Below are positions 16,559 to 50,073 of a stretch of 64,000 nt of DNA, piece after piece. Under the pieces are notes generated by a model that saw only the letters and a list, made by a program, of their open reading frames with translations, did not search any database and was not told where the DNA came from. Location of the stretch: positions 1 through 64,000 of IMG/VR virus record IMGVR_UViG_3300035070_003528; one strand, written 5' to 3'. This stretch comes from a virus. Positions within the stretch are counted from its first letter, which is position 1. The number at the start of each line of letters is the position of its first letter. The position numbers and the translations under genes were made by a program.

Positions 16559-16640
16559 TCGGCTAGATAGGAATCGAACCTATAAGGAATAATCCAATTG
16601 ATTTTAAGTCAATCGCGTTTGCCAATTTCGCCACTAGCCG
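16559..16640 (-). tRNA. tRNA-Leu (anticodon TAA), CCA not encoded
   Basis: Acceptor stem CGGCTAG/CTAGCCG, D-loop TGGCAAAC, anticodon arm ATTGA-CTTAAAA-TCAAT, long variable arm, T-loop GGTTCGATTCC, discriminator A. Confidence 0.93.
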
Positions 16641-30397: not shown

Positions 30398-31018
30398 ATG
30401 AGTAATACAAGTTTGACAAATTACAGTCTACAATCGATACTTCCAAAAGATGTGTCTGGATACAAGTTCATGGCATGGGTGAGATCGGATGCGTCCGTTG
30501 CACCGTTTACGCTGCCACGAGGAATCGGTACGTCAGTCAATGATAGTGGTTATATGTTTAGCAGCTTAGGAGTTGGGGTACATTCTGGTCTATCACCCGT
30601 AAGAAGTCTAGACCCGCTAATGACATTGGGTGGTGTTTACATAGAGAACATCAATGCCGCAACACCGGCCTCTCCTGTAGCATCTGGGCAAGCTAAATTT
30701 ATCACCGCCACTGAATTGGGTGAAATTCATGCGATTCCAGCAGCGAAGACAGCCAGCCAGGTGAGTACATCAGCAAATGCGCTAAAAACAACCAGTGGTA
30801 TTCTTTACGCAATCCACTTAGCGGCAAGCAATGTAAATGTTGGCAGTGTATTCCAGGCTAGGGATTTTGATCGGGATATGTTTACAATAATCGCGCCACA
30901 AAGCAGTTTTACACACGAGGTAATAATTCCTAGTGGTGGCATCGCATTTGGAACATCGTTGCTACATGCGCAAACAATCAGTGGTGGTGCGGCTAGCATG
31001 ACATTTGTGTTTCGTTAA
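30398..31018 (+). CDS. putative virion structural protein
   Basis: Last gene of the tail operon; beta-rich; its stop overlaps the convergent KdsC-like stop (TTAA). Confidence 0.55.
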   Translation: MSNTSLTNYSLQSILPKDVSGYKFMAWVRSDASVAPFTLPRGIGTSVNDSGYMFSSLGVGVHSGLSPVRSLDPLMTLGGVYIENINAATPASPVASGQAKFITATELGEIHAIPAAKTASQVSTSANALKTTSGILYAIHLAASNVNVGSVFQARDFDRDMFTIIAPQSSFTHEVIIPSGGIAFGTSLLHAQTISGGAASMTFVFR

Positions 31019-31515
31019 GTTATTACAAGTTCTGGGAATAGTTCTTGTATCCAAGGTTGTGTTAGAATTATATTAATCGCCTCTCTAACACAACCTTCTC
31101 CACCTTTTTTAGCCAGCACAATAATACCGTCAATTGATTTTACTTCATCTTCGGCATCGGCAGGGCAGAAGGCTAGTGTAGCATTTTGTAGTAGTTCCAA
31201 ATCTGGTACGTCATCAGAAATGGCAATATACTTTGTGGGGTGTTCATGAATAAACTTCGCCTCGACCAACCATGCTATTTCTGCATATTTATTACCAACT
31301 CCCAATGAGCAAGTTATTTGCAGTTTATTTGCGCGATGTTTAATTGATTGATCGTTTTCTCCAGACATGATAAATGGGACAATATTAGTTCTTTCTTTTA
31401 GTAATTGGAATCCATGCCCATCCCTCACAGAGAACCATCTTTCTTTGTTGGGATAAGATACCGTTCCGTCCGTCATCACCCCGTCCGCGTCAACTATCAT
31501 TGGAATCGTCATCAT
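31015..31515 (-). CDS. kdsC: KdsC/KDN-9-phosphate phosphatase-like HAD enzyme
   Basis: DADGVMTDG, F.VRDGHG, K, SDDVPD, PADA, GGEGCVRE. Confidence 0.85.
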   Translation of the reverse strand: MMTIPMIVDADGVMTDGTVSYPNKERWFSVRDGHGFQLLKERTNIVPFIMSGENDQSIKHRANKLQITCSLGVGNKYAEIAWLVEAKFIHEHPTKYIAISDDVPDLELLQNATLAFCPADAEDEVKSIDGIIVLAKKGGEGCVREAINIILTQPWIQELFPELVIT

Positions 31516-31690
31516 CGTTCTCCCAAATCTGCTCAAATTCATCGAATCTGCACAGTTCTATTTTTTCTTCACCGTAATGAATACCCTTGAAATACGCAAA
31601 TAAACTGTGCGGAGATGATTCCCCGACCTTTTTCACTTCGGTTCCTTCATCAAAAAAAGTATGCGGCCGTGCGATATAAATTACTGTCAT
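31490..31690 (-). CDS. hypothetical protein
   Basis: Coupled small ORF (FFDEGTEV...ELCRFDEF). Confidence 0.55.
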   Translation of the reverse strand: MTVIYIARPHTFFDEGTEVKKVGESSPHSLFAYFKGIHYGEEKIELCRFDEFEQIWENDDDDSNDS

Positions 31691-32506
31691 TTATCCTCTC
31701 AGTTTTTCACGTACTGGAATCTCACTCGGATAAACTCGCTTAACTCCATCACCAAAGATGACTGGAATCTTATTCCGTTCTCGCGCAATTAATTCCAATC
31801 CCTTTTGCTCTAACGATGCCGCCTGATCTGTTCCAGGTAACGACCGATCTAACGTAGCGTGTGCTTCAATACCCCATGCGCCCATTGCTATTCCATATAT
31901 ACTGGACATAGGACTCGATGAGTGATTCGAGTAACCGACTGGTAATGAATATCGTTGTCTTAGTGTATTAATTACATTAAGGTTAATTTCGTTATCAGCA
32001 ACAGGATAGCTGCTCGTGCAGTGCATTAGAATAAGATTATATCCATTTGGAAACAACTTTACAGCATGATCGATTTCTTCAATGGTTGACATGCCAGTTG
32101 ATAAGATAATTGGAATACCCGTATCAATCGATGCGTTCAGCAGCGCATCATTTACTAGCAATGCACTAGGGATTTTAATGAACGGGGGATGGTATTTCGC
32201 TAATTTCTCTAGACTAGGAATATCCCACACAGAAGCGAATGCTTGTCCAGCGTATTGCTTCATCCATAGATTTAGCTGGTCGTCATTGATTTCAATTCGC
32301 TCTTTATATTCGATGTATGTCATTGGCGTACCGTCGAACCATTCTCGTGGTTTATTCCATTGATCTTTTGGCACACATAGTCGCGGGGTGCGAAGCTGTA
32401 TTTTAACGTAGTCAAAATTTGCATCTAATGACATATTAGATAGTTTGATTAAATTCTTAAAACTGCCGTTGTGATTCAAACCCAATTCAGAAATCAACTT
32501 AGTCAT
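31691..32506 (-). CDS. neuB: NeuB-family nonulosonate synthase lacking the C-terminal SAF domain (KDN-9-P synthase-like)
   Basis: ISELGLNHNGS, VKIQ, SVWD, KIPSA, LSTGMST, HCTSSYP, GYSNH, EAH.TLDR..PGTDQ.ASLE. Confidence 0.9.
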   Translation of the reverse strand: MTKLISELGLNHNGSFKNLIKLSNMSLDANFDYVKIQLRTPRLCVPKDQWNKPREWFDGTPMTYIEYKERIEINDDQLNLWMKQYAGQAFASVWDIPSLEKLAKYHPPFIKIPSALLVNDALLNASIDTGIPIILSTGMSTIEEIDHAVKLFPNGYNLILMHCTSSYPVADNEINLNVINTLRQRYSLPVGYSNHSSSPMSSIYGIAMGAWGIEAHATLDRSLPGTDQAASLEQKGLELIARERNKIPVIFGDGVKRVYPSEIPVREKLRG

Positions 32507-33195
32507 TTTATCACCTTTGCTCTAAATTCAACACGGCCGTCATCCATATCCAAATAAGCCGCCTCGTACCCCTCGTAAGAACATGCTTTGATTAACTCAA
32601 GTACCAACATCGCAGAATATGCAGTTCGCTCATCGTCTTTAAACATTTCGTTCAGCGTTGTACCAAGATCGTGCGCCCCACGAAATTCTTTCAACGTATG
32701 AACAACGTCAATGTTTTGCTCAATATCAATGGGTGTAAAATCGCCCTCTGAGATGAGTTCTGCAACATTGTGTAGGAAAGTAGGCAATTCGTCGAAAAGT
32801 CTCTGTTGTAGTGTTTCCGCGGTGTCAGATAGGCGCACAGGAACAGGATGTTGGAGATAAATATCACCACGATCTATTTTGGCCGTCATGCGGTGAGCCG
32901 TCCAGCCACTTCCTTCGCCAGTTAGAACAGCCCAGAAGTTAGGGAAACTACCACGATGGTGCGGTAATAAACTTGGGTGAATATTTATTGTGCCAAGTCT
33001 TGGAATATCAAATTCGTTGTTTTTAATAATACGATTGTAGAGCAGGGAGACAACCAAATCATATGAAGGATTTACAAGACTATGATCCTCTAGATATTGA
33101 ATATCATGTCCCATTTCTCTTAATTCCTGCAAAAACGCTGCTCGTATAGCCGAGTATTTCTTTTGAGTTAATATTCCTATTTTCATTCTACCCAC
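32503..33195 (-). CDS. sugar N-formyltransferase (PseJ-like)
   Basis: INIHPSLLPHHRG, G.TAH.M...IDRGDI; located inside the nonulosonate cluster. Confidence 0.85.
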   Translation of the reverse strand: MGRMKIGILTQKKYSAIRAAFLQELREMGHDIQYLEDHSLVNPSYDLVVSLLYNRIIKNNEFDIPRLGTINIHPSLLPHHRGSFPNFWAVLTGEGSGWTAHRMTAKIDRGDIYLQHPVPVRLSDTAETLQQRLFDELPTFLHNVAELISEGDFTPIDIEQNIDVVHTLKEFRGAHDLGTTLNEMFKDDERTAYSAMLVLELIKACSYEGYEAAYLDMDDGRVEFRAKVIK

Positions 33196-33428
33196 AATTT
33201 TCCCTGTTTCATGATAACAACACCACTCCCACCAGATGTAATCGTTGCAATAGATCCATCATCATAATATGTTTGAGTATCAGACATCCATTCTTTGCAG
33301 TTTGGGCAAATATCTATAGCAATTTCTCTTTTGTAAATTTCGTACCACACTTTTTTGCTTTCTCGTTCATTAAACATAAATGTATGGCAACATTTTCTAC
33401 AGGTTATTTTATAATTGAAGTCGATCAT
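33183..33428 (-). CDS. small Zn-ribbon protein
   Basis: CRKC...CPNC. Confidence 0.55.
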   Translation of the reverse strand: MIDFNYKITCRKCCHTFMFNERESKKVWYEIYKREIAIDICPNCKEWMSDTQTYYDDGSIATITSGGSGVVIMKQGKLWVE

Positions 33429-34282
33429 CGCACTACCGGCCGTAGCCAGTCCTCGTCGCTTCGTCGATAATTATCTCTACAGAATTGTTCGCCCGTTGTG
33501 AATCCATCCTGATACCCGCCACGAGCTAGACGAAAACGCTCTGCCCATGTAACCATTTCTCTAAATTGAGATGGGGATAAACTATGTTCGGCCTCGTTGC
33601 CAAGTTTATCGAAAAGGTCGAAATGAGCCTCGATGGTTGTTGCGCCTAATAAAACTGAACTTGCGTTCAAAACCGGGTCTACGAAATGGCTACTCAGTCC
33701 ATAATCAATGAACCCAGTTCCATCCATATCGTACGTAAACTCGCTCACAATTTCCAGCATCCGTCGCATATTAAACTCTTTTAATTGAATTGGATAGCCT
33801 GGATGACAGTGCAAAATGGTGATGTCGTCAGGGAAATCGTCACCAGGACGTAGCAATGTGATCGCTGTTTCGATTTCTTCAATTGTCGCCGCCCCAGTTG
33901 ACAGAATAACCGGTTTCCCGTTTTGCGCCAGTTTGTTTAGTAACGGAATATAGGTAATGTCCCAACTAGCCACTTTCCACTCGTTAACAAATTCATCGAG
34001 AACATCAACGGCATCAACATCGAATGGCGTACACAGAAATTCGATATGATTGGTACGGCATTCAGCAGCGAGTTGTGGTAGCCATTCTCGCGGTAGAGCA
34101 ACGGCATTCAGCGACTTTTGTACATTTGGATTACTGTGTAATGTATCGCCTGTAAATAGTTGGAATTTAGCATGTGTTGCTCCAGCCGCAGCAGCTTCTT
34201 CGATCAAAGCCAGTGCTCGGTTAAGTGAACGGCCGTCCTTTTTTGTAACATAATTAGAGCCGATTTCAGCGATAAATTTCAT
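33425..34282 (-). CDS. pseI: second NeuB-family synthase (PseI/LegI/SpsE-like)
   Basis: FIAEIGSN, KFQ, TPFD, KVAS.DI, PVILSTG, LHC..YP, EAHF; adjacent to the PseG-like gene. Confidence 0.8.
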   Translation of the reverse strand: MKFIAEIGSNYVTKKDGRSLNRALALIEEAAAAGATHAKFQLFTGDTLHSNPNVQKSLNAVALPREWLPQLAAECRTNHIEFLCTPFDVDAVDVLDEFVNEWKVASWDITYIPLLNKLAQNGKPVILSTGAATIEEIETAITLLRPGDDFPDDITILHCHPGYPIQLKEFNMRRMLEIVSEFTYDMDGTGFIDYGLSSHFVDPVLNASSVLLGATTIEAHFDLFDKLGNEAEHSLSPSQFREMVTWAERFRLARGGYQDGFTTGEQFCRDNYRRSDEDWLRPVVR

Positions 34283-35078
34283 TGTATACCTTTTGTATCA
34301 TCTCAAGCATGTGAGAAGTATTTTGTTTCTGCATATTACTCGCCTGTCTGGCTACCATAGATAGCGTGAAGGTATCTGTCAATACATCTGGGTTAATACC
34401 TTGTGGCATAGCAAGTTTTTGGTAAATAAAATAACTGTAGTTAACCATTTGATTTGGTGCTGTTAGTATCAAGACGGTTGGTGCGCCCTGGTAAACCATT
34501 TCTTTTGCAGTCACACCAGCGGCTGTAATTACACACCGGGCGTTACGAGAATCTTGCATAAGTAAATTATGAGGAACGTCATTTGTCACCACAAAGTCAA
34601 TTCCGTGTTCTTCGCAGTAGTCCATGTAAGGCTGTGCGTTCTTCCAGTAATCAATGTAATTACTGCCGGGGATAAACATCACTGTTTCGCCGCCAATCCA
34701 ACTGTTTTCCTGCACGTCTTTACTAACGGCGTAGAACATTGCATTGCCGTATGATGTGGCTTCCCAACTAAAATCCTCTGCACCACCAGATACATAAACA
34801 ACTAAGTCAACGCCAGTTCCTTCATACTGAACACCAAATTCATCAGAAAGTAGTACGCTAAATACATCTGCGTCAAGTAGGTGTTCGTATTGCTGATTAC
34901 CTGGGTCAATGATAATAATATCGCCATGAATATAATTTGGCTTAGTATCACCCAATGACATTATTGTATATTCGTTATCAATATATTGGGAAATAGCATT
35001 AATGCGAGAACGATTACCATTGACAGGAATTAATTCTCCGTTCAATTCAACGTGCGTGGCATAAGCAAGATATATCAT
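34266..35078 (-). CDS. pseG: PseG/SpsG-like UDP-sugar hydrolase (GT-B fold)
   Basis: GNRSR N-terminal motif (GH..R-like), VITAAGVTAKE...GAPT.....APNQ; lies between the PseF-like and PseI-like genes. Confidence 0.6.
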   Translation of the reverse strand: MIYLAYATHVELNGELIPVNGNRSRINAISQYIDNEYTIMSLGDTKPNYIHGDIIIIDPGNQQYEHLLDADVFSVLLSDEFGVQYEGTGVDLVVYVSGGAEDFSWEATSYGNAMFYAVSKDVQENSWIGGETVMFIPGSNYIDYWKNAQPYMDYCEEHGIDFVVTNDVPHNLLMQDSRNARCVITAAGVTAKEMVYQGAPTVLILTAPNQMVNYSYFIYQKLAMPQGINPDVLTDTFTLSMVARQASNMQKQNTSHMLEMIQKVYNEIYR

Positions 35079-35785
35079 AAGTAATTCAGCAACTCCGCAG
35101 CGTGAATAAAATCATCAGGCGTGTCAATATCAACTGATTTCCGTTTGTCCATTTGGAAAAACTGGTAAGGAGGATAGCGGTAAGTGCGATACAAGCTAAA
35201 TTGATTAGCATTAGTAATGTAAATTGCGCCATTTTCGATAACCGGCCATTCTTCTAGCCATTGTTTACCCAATCTGAAACGGGGATCGTGGTTCAATGGC
35301 TTTGCTTCGCTCATCCCATTTATTGACCACACGAACGAATCCACTTGGTATCCAGAGAACAAACATCCTGTTCTGTCGCTTGCGTACCATTGGTTAATTG
35401 CGTTATCAATATCTTCCGCTGTGCGCAAGGGACTTGTAGGCGCGAGAAGAACAAGGTAGTCTGGTGCAACAAGTTCGCTTTTGTGCTGCAAGGTTCGCAA
35501 CATATCAAGAAAGACCTCATCAGTTTGCGTAAAGTCCTGCGAGAGTTTTGGGTCTCTATTTAATACATCGAAACGCATTCCCGACTTATCGATTTGGAAC
35601 GCAATATCATTTGCCATCACAGCAAGTTCTTCGTCCTCTGTGCTAAAGTAGACTTTATCAACGCTACTTTCTAACGCCGCTTTGATAGTCCAATAAATCA
35701 GCGGGTGTCCCTTGATTAGTTTTGCGTTTTTGCGCGGAACTCTCTTGCTATTTCCTCGTGCTGGAATGAATGCGTAAATTGTCAT
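35075..35785 (-). CDS. pseF: CMP-nonulosonic acid synthetase (NeuA/PseF family)
   Basis: IPARGNSKRVPRKN, STED, PTSPLR, ENGAIY, DIDTPDDF. Confidence 0.92.
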   Translation of the reverse strand: MTIYAFIPARGNSKRVPRKNAKLIKGHPLIYWTIKAALESSVDKVYFSTEDEELAVMANDIAFQIDKSGMRFDVLNRDPKLSQDFTQTDEVFLDMLRTLQHKSELVAPDYLVLLAPTSPLRTAEDIDNAINQWYASDRTGCLFSGYQVDSFVWSINGMSEAKPLNHDPRFRLGKQWLEEWPVIENGAIYITNANQFSLYRTYRYPPYQFFQMDKRKSVDIDTPDDFIHAAELLNYL

Positions 35786-36666
35786 ACCGCCTCCTTTTGT
35801 TTATATTTGCACCAATCTAGGTAGTCTTGTTTCGTACATGATACATGATAGCCACCCATGAATCTAACGTGAAAATCATAATGGCATTCATGACAAAGCA
35901 CAATCCCGTTATCCTTTTTATACCTCATTTCTAGATAATCGCTATAATTGAACAGGTGGTGCGCAACTGTTTTGTGCCCAGAGCCACAAACCGCACAATT
36001 GTATCCGTATTTTTTTCGTACCCCTCTTCGCCAGATTAAGTACCTTTCGTCGTCTTCTCTCTTTGCCTCTCTTTCTTCATCTGTTAAATTAGGATTGTAT
36101 CTTGGATTCGTTTCTCCAGTTAACCTTTCAATAAGATCCTCCGTTCTTTTGCATCCACAGCTTTCTTGCCCAGTTCTTAACGCGTTGCCGGAGACAATTA
36201 TTTCTTTTCCGCAATCACACACGCATCGTCTGTATTGATACTTTCCTCCCAAGTACTCTTTAACAACGAGCCTGCCATATCGCTCTCCCGTCATGTCTAT
36301 GTATCGGGAATGGGTTTCTCCAATCTTTAAGCACCCGCAACTTTTTGTTTTAAAAATCAATTGGTTTGTAGAGACTTTTGTTACCTCGCCACAATCGCAT
36401 ACACAAAGCCACTTTTTATCATCAACCAAATACTTCAAAACATAAAGCTTGTCAAATCTCATTCCCCTTAAATCCCTTACCATACTACACGACTTGCAGT
36501 ACGTGGAGCGGATTTTTTCTAGATTTAAATATGAAACAATTCTGGTTTTTAAACACAGAGGGCATGAGACATAAACATTTTTACCTGATTTTCTGTTTTC
36601 CATTGAATCCGGATCCAGAAATATGAAAACTGGATCTGATTTCGTCATCGTCAATATATCATTCAT
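35782..36666 (-). mobile_element. free-standing HNH homing endonuclease inserted in the sugar operon
   Basis: CVCDCG repeats, CAVCG...AHHL...NGIVLCHECH; overlaps both neighbouring genes. Confidence 0.85.
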
Positions 36667-37684
36667 AAGCACACACTCCGCTATTTATTGTATCAACGAT
36701 GTACTGGCATTCATCATCACTTAACGAATTATGGATAGGTATGCTAAGGCTGTGATTATAGTGGTGTTCTGCGATTGGACAATTTGCGTATAAGTGACTA
36801 TACAATGGTTGCATGTGTACTGGCTTGTAGTGAATTTGTGTTCTTATCTGATTTTGCAACAGATAGTCTTTGACAAAATCTCTTTGCTCTTTTGTTTTGA
36901 ATGTAATTGGAAACAAGTGCAAAGAATGGTTTTTATGATAAGGCGGGAGTTTCACCAAATGATCTAATTCTGCCCGATAGAATTGAGCAATTGTGTGCCG
37001 TCTGTTATGATCTGTATCCCACCTATCAAGTTGAGATAGTAATAGAGCCGCCTGGATGTCTGTCATTCTGTAATTCGCCCCAACAAAAGAAGCATCCCCA
37101 TCACTATTTCTTCCATGATTGCGGTACTCACGAGCAAATTCTACAAACTCCTTATTGTTAGTCAGGATAGTGCCTCCTTCTCCAGAATTCCCCAAGGTCT
37201 TTACGGCATGGTGCGAGGTTATTCTACATTGATAGTCACCAAACTCATTCATGTGCTCATGAAAAAAATGAGCGTCGTCAGCTATTAATCCACTACCAAC
37301 AACCGGATAACCACACAAGGAGACGGATAGATCGTATGTCTGGGTTGTCAATAATTTGTCATCTGCATCGGCAAGCTTGATTGGGATTCCTAGTCTGGTA
37401 ACAGAATTCGCGGTAGCCACAAATGTTAATGTGGGTACTGATACCCATTTTGGCTTTTCCATCTGATTAAAAAACCACTCAGCGGCAATGTACAAACCGG
37501 CAGTAGCATTAGATACAGCAACAGCAAAGCGATAGCCAGTAAATTCAGCTATCGCTTTTTCATATTTTTCTATTGTTGGGCCAGATGTAAGCCAATTACT
37601 TCTCAGGACTTTTTCGACTGCGCTTACGTCTTGATCCGTTATCGTCGGCTGTGCGTAATGAATCGGTAATGTCGGTGTCGTCAA
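36659..37684 (-). CDS. pseC: DegT/DnrJ/PseC-family PLP sugar aminotransferase
   Basis: LTSGP, AVSNATAGL, TFVATAN, DDAH, SHHAVK..GEGG, NYRMTDIQAA, IHYKP. TTG start at 37684 after GAGG. Confidence 0.9.
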   Translation of the reverse strand: MTTPTLPIHYAQPTITDQDVSAVEKVLRSNWLTSGPTIEKYEKAIAEFTGYRFAVAVSNATAGLYIAAEWFFNQMEKPKWVSVPTLTFVATANSVTRLGIPIKLADADDKLLTTQTYDLSVSLCGYPVVGSGLIADDAHFFHEHMNEFGDYQCRITSHHAVKTLGNSGEGGTILTNNKEFVEFAREYRNHGRNSDGDASFVGANYRMTDIQAALLLSQLDRWDTDHNRRHTIAQFYRAELDHLVKLPPYHKNHSLHLFPITFKTKEQRDFVKDYLLQNQIRTQIHYKPVHMQPLYSHLYANCPIAEHHYNHSLSIPIHNSLSDDECQYIVDTINSGVCAYE

Positions 37685-37829
37685 TTTCTTCCTCGTGTTC
37701 AACAATGGTATAAACTATTCCTTTTTCGTCGTATTCGCACCTCCGGGTGTGAAGTATGGCTTGTTCGTAACTCCACCCTAATCCAATGCCATCTTCGTGA
37801 CTATCTAATTTTACTGTGTAAGTTGTCAT
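37596..37829 (-). CDS. hypothetical protein
   Basis: ORF with RBS between the GroES and PseC genes. Confidence 0.45.
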   Translation of the reverse strand: MTTYTVKLDSHEDGIGLGWSYEQAILHTRRCEYDEKGIVYTIVEHEEEIDDTDITDSLRTADDNGSRRKRSRKSPEK

Positions 37830-37843
37830 AATTCTATAGTTCC

Positions 37844-39045: not shown

Positions 39046-39415
39046 CGCTCGATACGGCCTCTAGGTGTGTGTTCATAATTAATGCATTAAGTTCAGGGAC
39101 ATACGCAACTGGGTAATCTATCTCATCTAACTCTTCAAGGTTTACCGTAAGGTAACTTAGAATATCTGAGAATACGTCCTCTAGCCATTTCATGGTTGCT
39201 TCATCAATGTTATAATTTTCGTCGCGATACCGATAAGTAATATTTCCCCATCCAATCCATCCATCAAGAATGGACTCGCGGTCGGTTCTGTAGGGAAATG
39301 TTATGGTGTTTTTTAACGCTGAAATAAATCTAAAATCGTTGCTACTAATATCAAATATCTCAGCGGCACGATTAATATTTAATCCGATATTAATTGTATC
39401 GTGCGGGCTAATCAT
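39038..39415 (-). CDS. hypothetical protein
   Basis: Coupled ORF within the operon. Confidence 0.55.
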   Translation of the reverse strand: MISPHDTINIGLNINRAAEIFDISSNDFRFISALKNTITFPYRTDRESILDGWIGWGNITYRYRDENYNIDEATMKWLEDVFSDILSYLTVNLEELDEIDYPVAYVPELNALIMNTHLEAVSSDD

Positions 39416-40521
39416 TTACCACCAATTACCTCTGCGATATGTTGTGCATTTGATAAATTGTCATACACATCATAATACCGTTCTTTTTCGCATAGCGCGA
39501 TAGTTCTATAGTCATCTAAATTCGCCGCGATTTTATCCAACGCGGCCAACCATCCTGCTTCATTTGATTTATCACACGTTGTCAAAATGCCCTGGTCAAC
39601 AAATATACCAGATTTGCAATCAAAGAAATCTCGATATACTTCTGATTTTGTCGCAACGAATGGAATGCCCATTGCAATATATTCCATCACCTTGAGCCTA
39701 CTTCGTCGTTGATCGTATGGCATAGCCAATGGGGCGAGTCCAATATCAAAGCTACTTAATATACGAGGCCAATCGAAGAACATTACATAGTGACGAAACC
39801 ATAGCTGATCATCTGGTAATCCAAGTTGTTTAATCAATCTATTGTCGCCAACCAGCCCAAATTGCCAATCATCGTGCTTAGATAAAAACTTGTGTAACGC
39901 ACGTTCAACGCCACTGCGTGAGAAGCTAGTGAGATGGCTAAGACTTCCTCCCCACCCAACAGTCAACTTGCTACCTTTAACATGGGGAATATCGTATCGG
40001 TGCGATTCGATGTAATTTGGCAAGTATTTCATTGGCGCAAACTTATTCCAGTCTGAACACAGCACACGACTTGGGGTAATGCCACCTGTAACATATTTCA
40101 ATCCGTCACGAAACTGGTCAACAGGATGCTTATCTAATGTACGAACGTATTTATGCCCACCTGTGTTGACCTCTACTTCACCTTTGCCCCAGAACTTAAA
40201 GGCAGCGTTCTCTTCACCGATGTACTGATAGGCATCATCAAACGATACATAAACTTTTTTGCCTCGGCTCATCCAGTATGTAGCAACTTTGATGCTTTCA
40301 TCGAGCAGTACACGTTGGATGATAATAATGTCAGTTTCGTTACACGCCAGTTTGCATCGTGCGTTATTGGTCATCCAGTCTTGAACATAAATCCAAGAAA
40401 TGTCATACCCAATTGATCTCAGTGCGTTTGCGGGAACAGAAAACGTGTAATTCGACGAATTATATTCAGCGAAATTGTCTGCAAATACTAGGGCTAATTT
40501 AAATTTATTCTTGCTGGTCAT
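39412..40521 (-). CDS. GT-B (GT4-like) glycosyltransferase
   Basis: IIQR, FDD, PNY, VGWGGS.SH, DIGLAPL...RRSRLKVMEY..MGIP.VAT. Confidence 0.85.
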   Translation of the reverse strand: MTSKNKFKLALVFADNFAEYNSSNYTFSVPANALRSIGYDISWIYVQDWMTNNARCKLACNETDIIIIQRVLLDESIKVATYWMSRGKKVYVSFDDAYQYIGEENAAFKFWGKGEVEVNTGGHKYVRTLDKHPVDQFRDGLKYVTGGITPSRVLCSDWNKFAPMKYLPNYIESHRYDIPHVKGSKLTVGWGGSLSHLTSFSRSGVERALHKFLSKHDDWQFGLVGDNRLIKQLGLPDDQLWFRHYVMFFDWPRILSSFDIGLAPLAMPYDQRRSRLKVMEYIAMGIPFVATKSEVYRDFFDCKSGIFVDQGILTTCDKSNEAGWLAALDKIAANLDDYRTIALCEKERYYDVYDNLSNAQHIAEVIGGK

Positions 40522-41668
40522 TTTTTAATTCGTTATACCGCCGGTCTACCCAATTATTATCATGTTTCATTTCTAGTGCTTTCCTAAATGCAAACAGTGC
40601 TTCATTGCGGTCGCCAATAGCCAGATAGCACTCGCCGACAAATCCATAGGTTGCCCAGTTATTCGGCTCTTTTTGCAATGCCCAATTAATGCAATGATGA
40701 ACAAATGCATTATTATTCGATTCTATTGCCTTGTGTGCTGAAACGATAAAAGCTGGGTATTCCGCATCATTGACGTATTTAATTGCCTGTAATTCATTTA
40801 CCAGCGATTGTTTAACGCCGGTAAATGAGCAAGCCAGCATCAAAGTGACAAGTTGTTCGTCTATGTTCGCCTGTGGTACGAATTGAAGTTTTTTCAGTGT
40901 TGCGGCAAGTTCTTCTATTACAATGTTATCGCTGCCTCGTAAATCATTGGGATTAAGCAAACTCATAGCCGTTTCTGGATAACGAGTTGCCAAGAACACA
41001 CGACTGCGACCTTCTTTATACTGTCGCTGCATGAACGATTCCAATGTGTGTTTATGATAATGGAGATTGATTGCCGTTGGATCAAATGAAGTTGCATACC
41101 CCTGCTTGCGTAGTTCGTGACCAAACGCAACATCTTCCCAGGCGGCTGTGGGGAACTCTTCTGGAAATCCACCGAAATTAAGGAAATCATCGCGATTCAT
41201 CGAGAAGTTCGTTGTTAGCAAAAACCCAGTAGCGTCTGTTTTCCAGCCGGTGTTAGTTCGTAGATTAGACCAATTCGCTTGCATCCCCATACGATCTAGC
41301 CACTGCATGAAACGAGTATCTAGCACGTCTGGATGAAATGGGCTGTATCCTTGTAATGCCGTATGTTTATTGTAATAATGGTGGATTTGATGACGTAGAA
41401 TTAAATCTCGTTGCGGGAAGCAATCGTCCCCAACAAAAAGAACAGTATCCCCAACTGCCTCACGTGCGCCTACGTTACGCGCAACTGCTGGGCCACGATT
41501 AGTTTCATTATTGATTACACGCACAAATGGAGAGTTGTATTCAATATATTCTCCGCCATCGTTTACAACAATAACCTCAAATTCTTTCGCTGTTTGATGG
41601 TCGTATTTATCTAAATGAGCGTACAAAATATGCTTGTTGTTGTATGTTGGGATAATTACACTAATCAT
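40505..41668 (-). CDS. GT2 glycosyltransferase with C-terminal TPR
   Basis: ISVIIPTYN, VVNDG, GPAVARN, FVGDD, GGFPE.F...WEDV; TPR-like helices at the C-terminus. Confidence 0.9.
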   Translation of the reverse strand: MISVIIPTYNNKHILYAHLDKYDHQTAKEFEVIVVNDGGEYIEYNSPFVRVINNETNRGPAVARNVGAREAVGDTVLFVGDDCFPQRDLILRHQIHHYYNKHTALQGYSPFHPDVLDTRFMQWLDRMGMQANWSNLRTNTGWKTDATGFLLTTNFSMNRDDFLNFGGFPEEFPTAAWEDVAFGHELRKQGYATSFDPTAINLHYHKHTLESFMQRQYKEGRSRVFLATRYPETAMSLLNPNDLRGSDNIVIEELAATLKKLQFVPQANIDEQLVTLMLACSFTGVKQSLVNELQAIKYVNDAEYPAFIVSAHKAIESNNNAFVHHCINWALQKEPNNWATYGFVGECYLAIGDRNEALFAFRKALEMKHDNNWVDRRYNELKNDQQE

Positions 41669-41673
41669 AATGC

Positions 41674-42222
41674 TTACTTGCCCCCTTTCATTGCCGTTTT
41701 CACACAAAACGGAGCACATACACCATTGCTGAAATGACTCGCTGCTTCTAATGCCAGCAAAATACGAGACTGCGGCTCATTTGATGCGCTGGAAAATAAA
41801 CTTCCTAGAGCAAAGTTAGCCCCGCACCCCACCGCCGCATAATCATCCATATGTATATTAACCTGATAATCAACCTCTATGTTATAAATCTCTCCACGGT
41901 ATCCAACAATAAACTGTCCTCCAGATTCTTGCCCGTCCCGTATGGTCGAGAATCCCCCAGACGATAGACATTCTCTGACACAATCAACAAAAGCTGTTGC
42001 CATATATTCTGTGTCATCCATTCCATCTGGCTGATTTGGGGCGTTTAGTTTATACTGTAATAGCTGTCCCATTCTGAATGATGTGGTATACCCGATAATA
42101 AACTCTCCTTTAACAAACACCTTCTCTAATTTGGACGAAAATATTTCCCATCCATTAGCGGCAGCAGAGTCAGCACCAACATAAACTGTTCCGTTCTCTT
42201 TTATTGCAACAATGCACGTCAT
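41674..42222 (-). CDS. HslV/proteasome-beta-like Ntn peptidase
   Basis: N-terminal MTCIVA...GADS, KVF, AVGCG..FALG. Confidence 0.8.
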   Translation of the reverse strand: MTCIVAIKENGTVYVGADSAAANGWEIFSSKLEKVFVKGEFIIGYTTSFRMGQLLQYKLNAPNQPDGMDDTEYMATAFVDCVRECLSSGGFSTIRDGQESGGQFIVGYRGEIYNIEVDYQVNIHMDDYAAVGCGANFALGSLFSSASNEPQSRILLALEAASHFSNGVCAPFCVKTAMKGGK

Positions 42223-43358
42223 AATGTTCTCTTTATTTCCTTAACCACAACGGTCGTTGCCTTGCCAAGATTCTCTCCGAATTCATCACGAATAAACTTA
42301 GCCACTTGTTTTGTGTCAAATTCCGCAATGTGCTCTTGAATATTCGCCAACATATTAGGGAAAGTTTGCTGTGTTGCACTCAATGCCGCAACTGGAGCTA
42401 GTGGTTGTAGAATATCGTATCCGTTTTGCTGGTATTCAATTACAACTGCACCTAACGCAACTGCTTCTAACATAATCGTGCTATGCTGACCAACTACAAT
42501 TGTGTTGCCATTACGGCATAGAATCAGATTCTCCGGCGCGTTGTATGTCGTTAGTTTCTGGGGTAAATCACCGTATGTTCCTGCTTCTAGCTCAAACGGA
42601 TGTGGGCGAAACACGAAATCGAAACCAAGTTTTGTGGCAAAGTTGTGAAGGAAACTTGCATCTTGTGCTATGTTTCCAATGTATTCCTCTTGAAGTGTCG
42701 GGACAAAAAGCACGGTTTGCCGCCCACCGGATAGAGCATGTGCTTCTTCTCTACTCATGTTAACATATTTATCTAAATGGACAGGCCCAGATACAACCAG
42801 TTGGCTATTTTTCAACCCGGCAGCGATGTATTGCTTTTTAGTTGTGCTACTCCAAACAAACAGCTTGTCAACAAATTCACTTGCTGACTGTTGTTTATTC
42901 ATGGTAATCTGATCTCTGTCGCGCAATACACCCTCTTGAAAAGCGAATACTGGTACACCTGTTTCTTGTGCAAGGTAAGCAAGCGGTTTAGCAAAGAAGT
43001 TGTTACTGTGGAGAATCAAAACGGCCGTTGCGCTTGAAATTACATTGCGATAGGTTACGATTAATTCAGCCGCCTCTCTAACTGAGTATACTTGCCACCA
43101 AGGAGCAACCCCAGGCAACAATGGCATGTCTCTAAGCGTTCTCTCGACAATGCTGTCAACCAATTTGTCGTCACCGGGTTTAAATGATGTATACGAATGA
43201 ATGTACGGTTGACCAGACGCATTCATGTACAACAGCGGCGGGTCGATGTTGATGGCATTATTGGTTATCAACCAGCGCACATCTCGATCTGCCAATGCGT
43301 CAAATACCGGCTGTAATTTTTTCTTATGGTGTTCTCTACCACTGAATACTAAGATCAA
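42219..43358 (-). CDS. GT-B protein, candidate nonulosonate (sialyl-type) transferase
   Basis: QEG, FVWS, SGPVHLD, RPHP.E, HST..LEA motifs as in HP-containing CMP-sugar transferases. Confidence 0.65.
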   Translation of the reverse strand: MILVFSGREHHKKKLQPVFDALADRDVRWLITNNAINIDPPLLYMNASGQPYIHSYTSFKPGDDKLVDSIVERTLRDMPLLPGVAPWWQVYSVREAAELIVTYRNVISSATAVLILHSNNFFAKPLAYLAQETGVPVFAFQEGVLRDRDQITMNKQQSASEFVDKLFVWSSTTKKQYIAAGLKNSQLVVSGPVHLDKYVNMSREEAHALSGGRQTVLFVPTLQEEYIGNIAQDASFLHNFATKLGFDFVFRPHPFELEAGTYGDLPQKLTTYNAPENLILCRNGNTIVVGQHSTIMLEAVALGAVVIEYQQNGYDILQPLAPVAALSATQQTFPNMLANIQEHIAEFDTKQVAKFIRDEFGENLGKATTVVVKEIKRTL

Positions 43359-43573
43359 CTAATTCCTCCAATCTTATGTTCTAGATCGGCTGTAACCTCA
43401 AGCCAATTTTCCGGCACTGAATTGTTTGGCGCATATTCCCACACAATAAACTCTGTTCTGTACCCCCTGCCGCATTTTTTGCACCTGAATATTTTGTAAT
43501 GCGACACAGAAATAGTTTCGCCACAAACGCAGTCAACAAAACATTGGGTATCTTCGCTGCTGTAATTAATCAT
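43355..43573 (-). CDS. small Zn-ribbon protein
   Basis: CVCG...CKKCG. Confidence 0.55.
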   Translation of the reverse strand: MINYSSEDTQCFVDCVCGETISVSHYKIFRCKKCGRGYRTEFIVWEYAPNNSVPENWLEVTADLEHKIGGIS

Positions 43574-43753
43574 AGTACCCCACTAAATACTAGTATCATA
43601 ATATTTTTTCTATGAACAGCCAGCCAATATGCAATTGGTTCGATCTTTGCTTATTAAATGTTTGAGCATTTTTGAAGTGATAAAGTCTAAATTTATTTGA
43701 TAAGCGAAGAACAACTTTGCCTATCTTGAAAATCTTTTTCAGTCTAAGATTGC

Positions 43754-44665
43754 TCATTGTAAGACTCCTGAAAAAAAACTAGCTTTCTCTGTATTTGCAA
43801 TATCATAATAAGTAATCTTTACATTTTCTGGAAATTGACGAACCAAGTTTTCGTCATAAGTTGGGAGTAATACCTCCTCGCAGTTATGTAATCCAATAGC
43901 ATCCTGTAATTCAATTTGTTCGTGCTGTGCTAGTTGTGGGAATGTTTTCATAAACTTACGCCATTCTGTGTTGTTAGGAAACCCGATAACCAGTTTTTTG
44001 TCACCGAGTTCAATAGACTGGAACATAACCAATGCCTTCCAATCAAATCGACTGTCGTAATACATTCCAATTGTTTTCTTTCGCAATTCAGTTGGGCGAG
44101 GACGAGTTGGCACATCAAGCCCAGCAGAAACAACTTTCTTTATTTTATTCTTCAATAGAAATTGACGCTCTTGTTCGTGACTAACAACTAGGCTTATTTT
44201 GTTATACCAACGCAGAAAATCCATATGCTGGCGGTCTAGTATACTACTGGTTTTAACGGCCGTCGCTTTACCAACGTGTTCAACTGCTTGCCAAATAACT
44301 GGATTGTGTAAATCGAACGAGACAATCAGTTCGTCAAAATTAATCATATCCAGAATGCTAGTAATATCATTGTGTGGATAATACCAAAAGCGCAGTCGAT
44401 CAATACCCAGAACTTTCCACGCTGGCAATGAAGTAGTATCAATATTGATACCATCTAACACACCGGGCATAGCGATTTCATTGAATGATTTATCCCGTTC
44501 GGCCGTTGTGCTACTACGTGAAACAATTGGGATAATACTAATACCGAGTTTGGTAAATGGGTCAGAAAGTTGTGCTGACGCGATTACAATTCGCTCTGAT
44601 GTTGGGGTGCGCAATATCTCAGCCAGCAGTAATTCAGACGAACGGGTTACGATGAATAACTTCAA
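43754..44665 (-). CDS. degenerate GT-B-like/carbohydrate biosynthesis protein
   Basis: TTGA overlap with the upstream GT gene; alpha/beta pattern; catalytic motifs not recognised. Confidence 0.45.
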   Translation of the reverse strand: MKLFIVTRSSELLLAEILRTPTSERIVIASAQLSDPFTKLGISIIPIVSRSSTTAERDKSFNEIAMPGVLDGINIDTTSLPAWKVLGIDRLRFWYYPHNDITSILDMINFDELIVSFDLHNPVIWQAVEHVGKATAVKTSSILDRQHMDFLRWYNKISLVVSHEQERQFLLKNKIKKVVSAGLDVPTRPRPTELRKKTIGMYYDSRFDWKALVMFQSIELGDKKLVIGFPNNTEWRKFMKTFPQLAQHEQIELQDAIGLHNCEEVLLPTYDENLVRQFPENVKITYYDIANTEKASFFSGVLQ

Positions 44666-45849
44666 ATTCGCTCCTCCCATGTGCTAATGTAACTAGCAAC
44701 GGCCGTTTTGCCCACTGCTCCGCGATTGATGTCAAGCACACTGTTGTTCCAATTGTGTTGCATAATAACGTTCTGTAACTCAGCTATGTTTTTTGTTGGC
44801 AACACGTCATTGAACTGCAACTCATCAAGTTTGCTTACAATCGCACGTGCGACTCGTTCTGTTGCAGGTGCATCTAATCCACATGCCGCAATGTACTCTA
44901 CATCTGGGTCTGGCTCGAAAAACGCTGTTGTTGCATACTCTAGTAATTCACTAACACTGAGGCAACTTGGACGATTGGCGTATCCATCGTCCTCTGGTTC
45001 GCCAAATGAAACAACTGGTTTGTTTTGTAACATTGCGTCGAGTTCCGTAATACAACCAACCCGATTTACCACAGCGTCACACGCTGCAATTACATTAAAC
45101 ACAGTGTCTTGGGTAACGCAGACGTAGTTACGCTCGTCGCACCAGCGTTGTATTTCAATGACATCTTCCATTGGGTGCGGTTTTACAAGTATTTGCCAAG
45201 ATGGATTCTCGTCGTGCAGAGCATCAACGGCCGTCATGAAGCGTTGGCGTTCTCTCATTTCGTTTTGCGCAAATACCAGCGGGTCTTCTCTTCCGCTGAT
45301 TTTTGTAACGCCTAGGTCATGCCAGTCGCTTTTGTTAAACTGTGTGTCTTGAAACGCGAATTTTGCTTGTGGAAATGATGTGAATACACCAACAACCGGG
45401 TCATCTCCAAGTCCGTATTTGGCACGTACTTTGTCGCAATCGTCAATTAGATTCGTGTGGGTGTAATGCACATCGAAACGGGGGCAACCAGTTACAACTG
45501 CGTCGGTTGTAGTAAATTGTTTGGCAACGTGTTCGTTCCACGATAGGAATAAATCAATTTTTCCATCTTGACTGTTTACAAACCACTGCTCTTGTTCGAC
45601 AGTGTTCGGCCGTCCTTCTGTTGGCATTACAATACTGTATGGCGCACGACGAATAATTTCTTCATTACGAAAACCAATTGCATGGTTCAGTATCACAACA
45701 TGAGGCTTGAATAATTCCATTGTTTCTCGCCACAAGTCGATTGAAACAGCTATTACATCATAATTACGTAACTCAACCAAGCGTTTTTTGACCAACAAAC
45801 ATGGAATTGTGTCTCGATAACGACTGTCTACAAAAATTGCTACTCTCAT
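44662..45849 (-). CDS. surface carbohydrate biosynthesis GT-B protein, candidate nonulosonate transferase
   Basis: RD, PTEG, SWN, TGCPRFD, KPHPME, CITELDA..NKPV. Confidence 0.7.
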   Translation of the reverse strand: MRVAIFVDSRYRDTIPCLLVKKRLVELRNYDVIAVSIDLWRETMELFKPHVVILNHAIGFRNEEIIRRAPYSIVMPTEGRPNTVEQEQWFVNSQDGKIDLFLSWNEHVAKQFTTTDAVVTGCPRFDVHYTHTNLIDDCDKVRAKYGLGDDPVVGVFTSFPQAKFAFQDTQFNKSDWHDLGVTKISGREDPLVFAQNEMRERQRFMTAVDALHDENPSWQILVKPHPMEDVIEIQRWCDERNYVCVTQDTVFNVIAACDAVVNRVGCITELDAMLQNKPVVSFGEPEDDGYANRPSCLSVSELLEYATTAFFEPDPDVEYIAACGLDAPATERVARAIVSKLDELQFNDVLPTKNIAELQNVIMQHNWNNSVLDINRGAVGKTAVASYISTWEERI

Positions 45850-46010
45850 GCAATCATGTACTCCATCAACGTAGGCAGGGGCAAAACAGTCGTATGCTTA
45901 TCCCCGTGGTGTCGGCCTACAAAGATTAGACTAGCACCACTGGTTGACCACACGAACGAAACAATTGGTGTGTTGCAGTCCTTGCAGCGAAGCAATACGC
46001 TAGTTGCCAT
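45846..46010 (-). CDS. 54-aa Zn-finger protein, Com-like regulator candidate (not in the ORF track)
   Basis: MATSVLLRCKDCNTPIV...GRHHGDKH...; coupled at both ends (TAATG and ATGA overlaps). Confidence 0.55.
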   Translation of the reverse strand: MATSVLLRCKDCNTPIVSFVWSTSGASLIFVGRHHGDKHTTVLPLPTLMEYMIA

Positions 46011-46210
46011 TAAGAAAAGAAAATTCGGTTCAGAGTTGCTTTTAGCTGGGACAGGAATTGACCAAGTTGTTCCTGGTTGCCAGTGTCAACATTACGGCCG
46101 TGATTCAACACGACTTCCCACACTCGTTGGGCATCTGCCAAAGACACCGGTTCTCCCTGTGCCATTTTTGCGAATGCTGCTGTTTGTAATTCTAGGTTAA
46201 GATTGTTCAT
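46010..46210 (-). CDS. hypothetical protein, first gene of the glycosylation operon
   Basis: AAGGAG RBS. Confidence 0.6.
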   Translation of the reverse strand: MNNLNLELQTAAFAKMAQGEPVSLADAQRVWEVVLNHGRNVDTGNQEQLGQFLSQLKATLNRIFFS

Positions 46211-46220
46211 AATTCTCCTT

Positions 46221-46317
46221 AAAATAAAAAATGCGCCACTGTGGGCGCAAATTAAAAAGCAACTAGCCCATCAGGTGGTTCTAGTTGCCATTATATCATC
46301 GTTATACGAAATGTCAA
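46221..46317 (-). promoter_or_regulatory. promoter TTGACA-16-TATAAT-GGCAAC followed by two terminator-like hairpins
   Basis: -35 at 46312-46317, -10 at 46290-46295; hairpins gcaactag..ctagttgc+T5 and tgcgcc..ggcgca+T6. Confidence 0.65.
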
Positions 46318-48421: not shown

Positions 48422-48436
48422 TATTAATCTCCGCGA

Positions 48437-50041: not shown

Positions 50042-50073
50042 AACGACATAATATCACAAACGTTGTCAATAGT

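Follow-up and report, generated by a model that had tools for sequence, protein, structure and literature searches.

A gene cluster predicted to synthesize and transfer nonulosonic acids, acidic nine-carbon sugars of the sialic acid type, was found on the minus strand of a tailed phage genome, IMG/VR virus record IMGVR_UViG_3300035070_003528. The record, 101,465 bp long and rated 100% complete, carries direct terminal repeats; the window analyzed here is its first 64 kb (positions 1 to 64,000). Minus-strand open reading frames (ORFs) were tightly packed, with short gaps only, from 46210 down to 31015, and the sugar module takes approximately 15 kb, which is approximately 15% of the phage genome. 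Sugars of this type are familiar as decorations of bacterial surfaces and flagella, and glycosyltransferases of phages are known as well. Judging from the sequence, we regard the cluster as likely to be a working nonulosonate synthesis-and-transfer module of the phage.

Families were assigned by Pfam and NCBIfam profile searches. All of the gene classes that a first-pass annotation had proposed for 31015–46317 were recovered there on the minus strand, namely, a PseB-like dehydratase, a PseC-like aminotransferase, an N-formyltransferase, a PseG-like hydrolase, two NeuB/PseI-family synthases, a PseF-like synthetase of the cytidine monophosphate (CMP)-linked sugar, a KdsC-like phosphatase, and several glycosyltransferases. 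Every equivalog hidden Markov model (HMM) score was below its curated cut-off, and therefore the enzymes are divergent members of their families. All cluster genes described below lie on the minus strand.

Phage origin of the cluster and its relatives

The genome is of the tailed-phage type, with a major capsid protein (MCP) gene (8877–10337), a protease gene, a tape-measure-like gene (20741–23491), genes for large tail proteins, and an endolysin-like gene. The cluster is flanked by the genes for the portal protein (46817–48421, minus strand) and the terminase large subunit (TerL; 48437–50041, minus strand), the DNA of which had no blastn match in 50,697 GenBank phage records. The tetranucleotide correlation between the cluster and the rest of the window was 0.972, and that for other chunks of equal size ranged from 0.938 to 0.970. 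Similarly, the density of the palindrome ACGGCCGT, which is over-represented in this genome, was 0.40 per kb inside the cluster and 0.35 per kb outside.

An alignment-based scan of IMG/VR detected seven related loci, whereas scans with single proteins (the portal protein and GTB395, a 395-aa glycosyltransferase described below) gave no match. In five of the seven loci (L003–L007), the genes followed the order TerL, portal, 170-aa ORF, 54-aa ORF, GTB395, and u308; L003–L006 continued through GTB379, GT2-TPR and, where the contig permitted, GT4, and L006 ran further to PseB, PseC, PseF, and NeuB. The proteins of these loci were 25–53% identical to those of the window. A survey for the same cluster linked to portal genes, which had been proposed with the first-pass annotation, thus found TerL and portal ahead of it in L003–L007. 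Across the relatives, the conserved order was GTB395, u308, GTB379, GT2-TPR, GT4, PseB, PseC, PseF, and NeuB at approximately 30–50% identity.

The cluster order was kept in two relatives of approximately 100 kb and in one 17-kb fragment. The two large relatives, G001 (99,998 bp, 99% complete) and G002 (105,404 bp), carried the same cluster beside the same tail genes, and each held orthologues of both NeuB synthases, the formyltransferase, PseF, PseB, PseC, and the PseG-like gene. The orthologues in G001 and G002 were 48% and 38% identical, respectively, for NeuB1, and 41% and 38% for NeuB2. The cluster of G002 was stretched to approximately 31 kb by extra tailoring and mobile genes. The extra genes (42.4–52 kb; L019:2394-12000) encode an NAD epimerase/dehydratase, a class I methyltransferase, and a TylF-type O-methyltransferase, together with an ATP-grasp enzyme, two short-chain dehydrogenases/reductases (SDRs), a xylose-isomerase-like TIM barrel protein, and a DUF5131 protein. 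With these additional tailoring genes, G002 may modify its sugar more elaborately. Within the lineage, the module is old, its tailoring genes are variable, and homing endonucleases are scattered within it, which is phage-like behaviour. When the GTB395 family was searched for in 185,579 species genomes, one weak match only was obtained, which gave no clue to the host.

Enzymes of the upper pathway and CMP activation

The PseB-like uridine diphosphate (UDP)-N-acetylglucosamine (UDP-GlcNAc) 4,6-dehydratase, an SDR protein, is encoded at 38113–39045 (TIGR03589, 6e-46; PF02719, 9e-57). Its score was 156.8 bits with the PseB model (cut-off, 407.75), versus 115 bits with FnlA and 50 bits with LegB. 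An alignment to FlaA1 (2gn4, 1e-28) indicated that the motifs S-T-D-K and Y-x3-K, that is, T-x9-Y-x3-K, are kept. This Tyr-type triad of the phage dehydratase is common to the retaining enzyme PglF as well.

The adjoining step is represented by a PseC-like pyridoxal phosphate-dependent aminotransferase of the DegT family (36659–37705; TIGR03588, 9e-69; DegT-family match, 9e-63), in which the context of the Schiff-base lysine, H-A-V-K, is kept. The PseC model gave 232 bits (cut-off, 423.5), versus 134 bits for ArnB and 120 bits for LegC.

A 230-aa protein encoded at 32503–33195 resembled sugar N-formyltransferases (PF00551, 2e-20). It has a Formyl_trans_N core with the N-x-H...D triad, read as I-N-I-H-P-S-L-L-P ... 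R-G-D-I, and, like PseJ, it is shortened at the N-terminus, its residue 34 aligning with residue 30 of PseJ. Its matches comprised methionyl-tRNA formyltransferase (4e-14), GDP-perosamine formyltransferase (6e-14), and PseJ (6ci2, 3e-10). Neither PseH (TIGR03585) nor a hexapeptide acetyltransferase was found in the whole genome, where this formyltransferase was the only N-acylating enzyme; it is therefore the only candidate for N-acylating the 4-amino sugar. The earlier proposal that a formyltransferase stands in place of PseH was thus supported by the presence of the one and the genome-wide lack of a match to the other.

The PseF-like CMP-nonulosonate synthetase (35075–35785) matched PseF as the best model (7e-25; 88 bits versus a cut-off of 205.7) and contains the nucleotide-binding motif IPARGNSKRVPRKN. 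It was the only cytidylyltransferase of its family in the whole genome.

PseG-like protein

The gene at 34266–35078 encodes a 270-aa protein that matched the PseG model weakly (5.5e-4) and is a candidate UDP-sugar hydrolase with a compact GT-B fold of the GT28 type. Just 10 matches were obtained among 1.84 billion representative proteins. An AlphaFold model built with an alignment of relatives showed a compact GT-B fold with a predicted local distance difference test score (pLDDT) of 86, and its structural matches were MGD1 (Z 19.5), MurG (Z 17.7), and Campylobacter jejuni PseG (3hbn; Z 15.1 over 213 residues). In the PDB, the family profile likewise matched a GT28 enzyme best by sequence. The family has the motifs G-H-x-x-R in the N-terminal part and T-A-x-G-x-T-x-x-E...N-Q in the C-terminal part; G21 and R25 are invariant. 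Orthologues were detected with an HMM in G001 and G002, which both keep the His of the first motif, as do seven other members.

No NeuC/LegG-type epimerase was found in the whole genome, where PF02350 (Epimerase_2) gave no match at E <= 0.1, and nucleotide removal therefore falls to the PseG-like protein. From its sequence and predicted fold, the protein is a plausible agent of this step, which is the least certain of the pathway.

Two NeuB synthases and the phosphatase

NeuB2 (33425–34282; 285 aa; PF03102, 3e-50) is a nonulosonate synthase without the SAF domain. It scored 160.1 bits with the NeuB model and 149.4 bits with the PseI model (PseI cut-off, 340), and its best solved match was SpsE (2e-24), of which the metal-binding His and Glu equivalents are kept. 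Its close family has approximately 25 members, mostly unnamed, and the relatives beyond these are annotated as LegI or NeuB. We propose NeuB2 as the putative synthase of the 5,7-diamino sugar. An 81-aa zinc-ribbon-like ORF that follows NeuB2 (33183–33428) was considered as a detached SAF domain and rejected, as it had only weak zinc-ribbon-like matches.

NeuB1 (31691–32506; 271 aa; PF03102, 2e-52) is also a SAF-less NeuB-type synthase, with 176 bits for the NeuB model and 127 bits for the PseI model. Its best solved relative was 6ncs, a 290-aa chain (4e-33), and it belongs to a very large environmental family of SAF-less proteins of 270–300 aa with more than 7,800 matches. Both synthases keep the equivalents of Neisseria meningitidis E25, K53, Q55, K129, H215, E234, and H236, and at the position of E134 NeuB2 has Asp. 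The first-pass annotation had described only the second NeuB as SAF-less; this was correct for that protein, whereas the domain is missing from both (271 and 285 aa). Since SAF-less enzymes account for approximately 30% of the nonulosonate synthases in UniProt, clustered among environmental bacteria (PMC8208679), the absence of the domain is no sign of decay.

Next to NeuB1, the gene at 31015–31542 encodes a 175-aa C0 HAD phosphatase of the KdsC/YrbI family, for which the best model was KDN-9-phosphate phosphatase (1e-22), KDN being ketodeoxynonulosonic acid. The HAD motifs D-x-D-G and D-D-x-x-D are intact. The scores were 80.8 bits for NF058599 (cut-off, 180) and 68 bits for TIGR01670 (cut-off, 107); the orthologue in G002 passed TIGR01670. 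That a KdsC-like phosphatase is encoded beside NeuB1 hints at synthesis through a 9-phosphate, as for KDN or N-acetylneuraminic acid (Neu5Ac). As for the KDN-9-phosphate route that had been assigned at first, the pairing stands, and the KDN-9-phosphate equivalog cut-off was not passed, nor was the phosphatase present in G001. Because G002 shares the pairing with this phage and G001 lacks it, we infer this route with reserve.

Glycosyltransferases

GTB395 (44662–45849) is a 395-aa GT-B protein with an HP motif, of the TIGR04396/BFO_1060 type (NF046086, 1.6e-30; TIGR04396, 2e-26). Its NF046086 score of 106.5 bits was below the cut-off of 200, and that for TIGR04396 was likewise below the cut-off. 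In 47 homologues, some of which carry the TagF family domain PF04464, the motifs E-G-R and K-P-H-P-x-E were invariant, as were H225 and P226. The structural model (pLDDT 93) matched TarL with Z 19.3 and TagF with Z 17.6. GTB395 is thus a candidate CMP-nonulosonate transferase, the sequence models favouring a TagB-like transferase.

A second HP-motif GT-B protein, GTB379 (42219–43358; 379 aa), matched NF046086 (5e-11, 42.3 bits) and TIGR04396 (8e-7). Its Q-E-G and R-P-H-P-F-E aligned at the motif positions of the profile of the 395-aa family, and its relatives were 31–40% identical. GTB379 is a candidate for a second nonulosonate transferase. The 308-aa protein u308 (43754–44680), conserved in all relatives at 25–35% identity, had weak structural neighbours among GT4/GT1 proteins (Atlas; TM approximately 0.5), and the model indicates that it is probably a third GT-B glycosyltransferase. 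No profile relation was found between u308 and the HP-motif family, and it was rejected as a paralogue of that family. Of the two or three GT-B proteins originally expected, two of them with HP motifs, GTB395 and GTB379 were confirmed and the third is probable.

The remaining two glycosyltransferases are a GT2 protein with C-terminal tetratricopeptide repeats (TPR) at residues 345–389 and without a membrane segment (GT2-TPR; 40505–41719; 33–37% identity in relatives), and a 369-aa GT-B protein of the GT4 type (39412–40521; PF13692, 3e-7; 36–50% identity in relatives). GT2-TPR is a candidate protein-directed priming glycosyltransferase. Maf proteins (MAF_flag10/DUF115) gave no Pfam match among the cluster proteins at E <= 0.001 (<= 1 for the unassigned ones).

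Probable transcription unit

A promoter-like site of the sigma-70 consensus type (TTGACA-16 nt-TATAAT with a TG extension, 12/12) lies at 46290–46317 on the minus strand and was the sole perfect match within 30700–50600. Promoter-like sites overall were not enriched relative to shuffled sequences. Between this site and the first small ORF, a GC-rich hairpin followed by a T-run is located at 46232–46249 (minus strand), which may be a leader element or may terminate the TerL-portal unit. With the promoter and the hairpin between the portal block and the cluster, the cluster looks like a transcription unit of its own, probably starting near 46317–46290. The operon had been placed directly downstream of terL-portal; the minus strand was right, and the direct junction was not, since a 170-aa ORF kept in relatives (46314–46826, minus strand), the promoter, and the hairpin intervene.

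Proposed pathway, product and acceptor

On the basis of these assignments, the PseB-, PseC-, and formyltransferase-like enzymes would turn UDP-GlcNAc into UDP-4-formamido-2-acetamido-2,4,6-trideoxyhexose. UDP would then be removed, and the free sugar would be condensed with phosphoenolpyruvate (PEP) and activated with cytidine triphosphate (CTP), so that the expected product is a CMP-linked 5-acetamido-7-formamido nonulosonate of the pseudaminic acid (Pse) or legionaminic acid (Leg) type. NeuB1 would probably make a second nonulosonate through a 9-phosphate intermediate, to be activated by the same cytidylyltransferase. GT2-TPR may prime a protein acceptor, GT4 and u308 may extend the glycan, and GTB395 and GTB379, the TagF-like HP-motif proteins, may cap it with the acidic sugars.

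Whether the product is Pse rather than Leg or another isomer is evenly balanced in our estimation, because PseB and PseC gave the best scores for their proteins, whereas the sps enzymes of Bacillus subtilis give Leg, PglF shares the Tyr triad, and NeuB2 is not PseI-like by HMM. This agrees with the initial opinion that motifs leave the stereochemistry unsettled, for which the sps precedent and the relatives of NeuB2 (SpsE, LegI, and NeuB) now provide grounds.

No membrane segment was found in any cluster product, and flippases, polymerases, ligases, and priming phosphoglycosyl transferases were absent from the cluster; therefore, the system appears to work in the cytoplasm. Such a location fits direct O-glycosylation of a protein, by analogy with flagellins and mycobacteriophage subunits, and the TPR fusion on GT2 would likewise fit a protein acceptor. 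We consider a soluble, cytoplasmic module that glycosylates a protein, whichever protein this may be, to be fairly probable. The most likely acceptor would be one of the structural proteins that the phage assembles in the cytoplasm, for example, the tail tube or the capsid protein; for a virion protein as the acceptor, the chance seems to fall a little short of even. The large tail tube protein (5650–6972, minus strand, outside the cluster; 440 aa, Phage_tube_2-like) exceeds every other protein of the genome in Ser/Thr content, which amounts to 21% over its full length and rises to 47% in residues 170–199. A more tentative proposal is that these siphophages of approximately 100 kb make two sugars with no enzymes but their own, one of the N-formyl Pse/Leg type and the other of the KDN/Neu type, each having its own HP-motif transferase, and place them on the tail tube or capsid.

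Several observations weigh against this interpretation. With all equivalog scores below the cut-offs, the substrates are predictions. In the PseG-like protein, Asn22 takes the place of the His in G-H-x-x-R, a residue present in 9 of the 11 family members, and one further member, P0052, has Asn there as well. The corresponding residue of C. jejuni PseG, His17, is presumably the proposed catalytic base. The PseG-like step may thus be impaired, be done differently, or be left to a host enzyme. A PseG-like hydrolase, as originally assigned, is therefore borne out in its GT28-type fold and size and not in the conserved His; the claim of a complete nonulosonate pathway holds insofar as the genes would in principle suffice to make a CMP-activated 5,7-diamino nonulosonate, the His of PseG being the exception. 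NeuB2 scored no better with the PseI model than with the NeuB model, and its nearest solved or named relatives are SpsE, LegI, and NeuB, not PseI. For the second sugar, N. meningitidis E134 corresponds to Leu in NeuB1, and G001 has no phosphatase despite keeping NeuB1. Regarding transfer, the fold of GTB395 matches UDP-GlcNAc 2-epimerases/NeuC and TarL equally (Z 19.3 each), and Foldseek ranks epimerases first. An assignment of GTB395 as a NeuC/LegG-type epimerase was set aside, given that BFO_1060 and TIGR04396 match, homologues carry PF04464, and Epimerase_2 gives no match; it is kept as a caveat. With respect to the acceptor, the tail tube is a candidate by its composition alone, and the MCP and the other structural proteins tested had no Ser/Thr-rich tails. 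Finally, the consensus sigma-70 promoter would also suit early, host-aimed expression.

Alternative explanations

The last point leads to an alternative that we regard as unlikely, in which the CMP-nonulosonates are added through host routes to lipopolysaccharide (LPS), capsule, S-layer, pili, or flagellin of the host, so that superinfection would be blocked or progeny would be kept from sticking to debris. The promoter would suit early transcription by the host polymerase, and GT2 and GT4 enzymes often use undecaprenyl-linked acceptors without membrane segments of their own. Capping of an O-glycan on a cell-surface protein is the role of those BFO_1060 family members that have been characterized, and in Acinetobacter, Pse-containing capsules are known to be altered by prophage enzymes; the prophage genes there only epimerize or acetylate Pse made by the host (PMC12053666). 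Such a role is disfavoured by the lack of a flippase, polymerase, ligase, priming phosphoglycosyl transferase, or membrane segment in the cluster and by the location of the module in the structural region, directly behind TerL and portal in several relatives and beside tail genes in all. The TPR fusion points to a protein partner, and the genome looks virulent (101 kb with terminal repeats; no integrase search was made).

A second alternative is that the upper pathway stops at UDP-4-formamido-4,6-dideoxy-hexosamine, which would be used directly as a glycosyl donor; the NeuB enzymes would then make acids of the KDN/Neu type from hexose or hexosamine (phosphates) of the host, and the 270-aa GT28-like protein would be an ordinary glycosyltransferase or inactive. 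Asn22 in place of the family His would be understandable in that case, as would the closer resemblance of the 270-aa model to the true transferases MGD1 and MurG (Z 17–19.5) than to PseG (Z 15.1). In addition, PseJ resembles the formyltransferase no more closely than do the GDP-perosamine and dTDP-sugar formyltransferases, and neither NeuB is PseI-like by HMM. Against these points, the 270-aa protein is as compact as PseG, its gene sits between those of PseF and NeuB2, and in G001 and G002 a PseG-like protein that has the His is encoded together with PseB, PseC, the formyltransferase, NeuB2, and PseF. The Asn of P0052 suggests that the change is apparently tolerated, and the genome offers no NeuC/LegG alternative. 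We consequently judge a pathway ending at the UDP-linked sugar improbable, and prefer the complete route to a CMP-nonulosonate.

Hypermodification of DNA, in which the glycosyltransferases would decorate modified bases of the phage in the manner of 5-hydroxymethylcytosine glycosylation, appears very improbable. Phage glycosyltransferases that add varied glycans to DNA are known (bioRxiv 10.1101/2023.12.21.572611), but nonulosonic, pseudaminic, and sialic sugars are not mentioned in that report, nor are CMP donors. Moreover, neither a TET/JBP dioxygenase nor a thymidylate-synthase-like hydroxymethylase was found in the whole genome, and both the TPR fusion and the BFO_1060-type relation point to protein or glycan acceptors. 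Lastly, an artefact, whether a chimera made in assembly or host DNA captured recently and without a working role in the phage, to which the bacterial type of the enzymes might point, is barely credible in view of the complete genome with terminal repeats, the equal composition and palindrome density inside and outside the cluster, the synteny in at least seven IMG/VR records, at 30–50% identity and with the same TerL, portal, and tail genes adjoining (which contradicts a chimera), the phage-typical homing endonucleases inserted in the cluster, and the near absence of the GTB395 family from the 185,579 species genomes; the cluster is thus phage-borne, as it had been read from the beginning.

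Comparison with known systems

The route from PseB through PseC, PseH, PseG, PseI, and PseF yields CMP-pseudaminic acid in Helicobacter pylori and C. jejuni (PMC7910423). In the phage cluster, the reactions would follow one another in that order, and enzymes of the families concerned are present for five of the six steps, PseB and PseC being the NCBIfam models with the best scores; the route is likewise UDP-linked, soluble, and cytoplasmic. The cluster differs in that it is carried by a phage, has a formyltransferase for PseH, has a SAF-less synthase that is not PseI-like by HMM, and has a very divergent PseG-like protein with Asn.

The sps system of B. subtilis (SpsM, C, D, G, E, and F) is a UDP-linked Leg route of six enzymes with a dehydratase of the PseB/CapE/PglF family (PMC7439481). 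SpsE is the best solved match of NeuB2, and the sps sugar coats the proteinaceous spore crust inside the mother cell. On the other hand, SpsM has T-x9-M-x3-K with Met in place of the Tyr of the phage enzyme, SpsD is an acetyltransferase, and the system has no second synthase. SpsE is a 385-aa chain with a C-terminal extension, which we take to be SAF, missing from the phage enzyme. With PseJ (6ci2/6ci4), the phage formyltransferase shares the Formyl_trans_N core, the N-x-H...D triad, and the shortened N-terminal part, whereas PseJ was not its top match and the phage protein has approximately 80 extra C-terminal residues.

For the second sugar, we compared the BT1714/BT1713 pair of Bacteroides thetaiotaomicron, which we take to be a KDN-9-phosphate synthase and phosphatase. 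In both cases, a NeuB-family synthase adjoins a C0 HAD phosphatase of the KdsC/YrbI type with intact motifs. The phage system is unlike this pair in that the phosphatase reached 80.8 bits against 180, is missing from G001, and is accompanied by no dedicated CMP-KDN synthetase.

In Tannerella forsythia, deletion of Tanf_01245/TFUB4_00887/BFO_1060 resulted in loss of the terminal Pse/Leg derivative from the S-layer O-glycan, while the CMP-sugar still accumulated; the Pse/Leg transferases of this organism, which are known from genetics and not from an in vitro assay, have D/E-D/E-G and HP motifs and resemble TagB (PMC5420450). The phage proteins are similarly GT-B/TagB-like, have D/E-D/E-G-like and HP motifs, and are encoded beside CMP-nonulosonate genes, but they are shorter (395 and 379 aa versus approximately 445), occur as two paralogues, and score below the family cut-off. 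What the cluster would share with flagellin Maf islands is O-glycosylation, in the cytoplasm and with Pse/Leg, of a structural protein that assembles by itself; it differs from them in having no Maf (DUF115).

Capsid and tail tube subunits of mycobacteriophages are reported to carry O-glycans (Freeman 2023, as cited in PMC12619734). The likeness to the present phage lies in phage-encoded soluble glycosyltransferases near structural genes. To our knowledge, those mycobacteriophages have glycosyltransferases only and use the nucleotide sugars of the host. In contrast, the present phage combines its transferases with a predicted pathway that would make rare acidic nine-carbon sugars de novo.

Other genes in and around the cluster

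At the upstream end of the cluster, two small ORFs of 66 and 54 aa occupy 45846–46210, of which the 54-aa ORF is kept in place at 43–53% identity in L003–L007. Two further small ORFs (43355–43757) encode a 72-aa protein with a CxxC...CxxC zinc-ribbon pattern and a 53-aa protein. A 182-aa protein encoded at 41674–42222 weakly matched Ntn-hydrolases of the proteasome-beta/HslV type, has the N-terminus M-T-C-I-V-A-I-K, and is kept in G001 (25205–25747) at 36% identity. The 125-aa protein encoded at 39038–39415 had no family match. Between the PseB-like and PseC-like genes, a GroES/Cpn10-like co-chaperonin of 89 aa is encoded (37844–38113), the gene for which was not found in G001 or G002 by tblastn. 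At the downstream end, a 66-aa acidic-tailed ORF (31490–31690), an uncertain gene, overlaps the start of the phosphatase gene.

Between the PseC and PseF genes, a 296-aa HNH homing-endonuclease-like protein is encoded (35782–36672), with weak matches to HNH_2 (0.002) and HNH (0.011); CxxC repeats and an H-H...N...H motif were read in the sequence. The G001 cluster contained GIY-YIG and HNH insertions (L015:1792-2601 and L015:5743-6906), and that of G002 contained a LAGLIDADG gene and TnpB (IS605 OrfB) (L018:17247-18431 and L018:19024-19851). In G001, an RtcB RNA ligase is encoded directly after NeuB1 (L015:15174-16370).

In the head region of the window, the minus strand carries a radical-SAM/Fe-S oxidoreductase-like gene (11468–12370), an RNA ligase gene (phrog_562; 13115–14194), and a tRNA-Leu(TAA) gene (16558–16640). 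The palindrome ACGGCCGT occurred 23 times and CGGCCG 55 times in the 64 kb, evenly spread (2300–62200).

Distribution and implications

In GenBank, 3 of 50,697 phage records matched NeuB2 by tblastn, and one of these is a Moritella viscosa record. In IMG/VR, at least 175 stretches encoding a NeuB relative were detected with two peptide patterns. Among the best 80 of these stretches, a PseF-like gene was present within 10 kb in 34, a PseB-like gene in 23, a PseC-like gene in 12, and a formyltransferase gene in 3. When the five records with the fullest gene sets were inspected, three had a terminase match above the Pfam cut-off and a fourth had a weaker one. The unrelated loci L082 (in a 94-kb record), L088, and L046 (56.6 kb, rated complete) encode PseB-like and PseC-like proteins, NeuB, and Terminase_6N; L082 and L088 also carry a formyltransferase gene, and L046 carries a PseF-like gene. 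Nonulosonate cassettes are therefore present in other phage lineages too. The rarity that had been ascribed to the pathway accordingly applies to the phages in GenBank and not to IMG/VR. What is lineage-specific is the two conserved synthases, the formyltransferase for PseH, the transferases of the BFO_1060 type and not of the Maf type, and the size of the module.

In our search of the literature, we found no paper on nonulosonate synthesis genes in phage genomes or as auxiliary metabolic genes, and no description of a tailed phage with a whole route from UDP-GlcNAc to a CMP-nonulosonate plus transferases. The compact soluble enzymes, namely, the SAF-less synthases, the PseJ-like formyltransferase, the minimal PseG-like protein, and the non-Maf transferases of the Pse/Leg type, could be useful for chemo-enzymatic synthesis.

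The share of approximately 15% of the genome and the retention of the module in relatives at 30–50% identity indicate strong selection. We know of no description of a nonulosonate virion coat for any phage. If the acceptor is a virion protein, the phage would wear a negatively charged coat resembling a bacterial surface, which would change its adsorption, stability, or recognition, and the charged glycans could influence adherence to mucus or biofilm, the range of hosts, and recognition by antibodies. Taken together with their occurrence in other lineages, nonulosonate cassettes appear to be an overlooked general feature of uncultured phages and not a lone oddity of this one.

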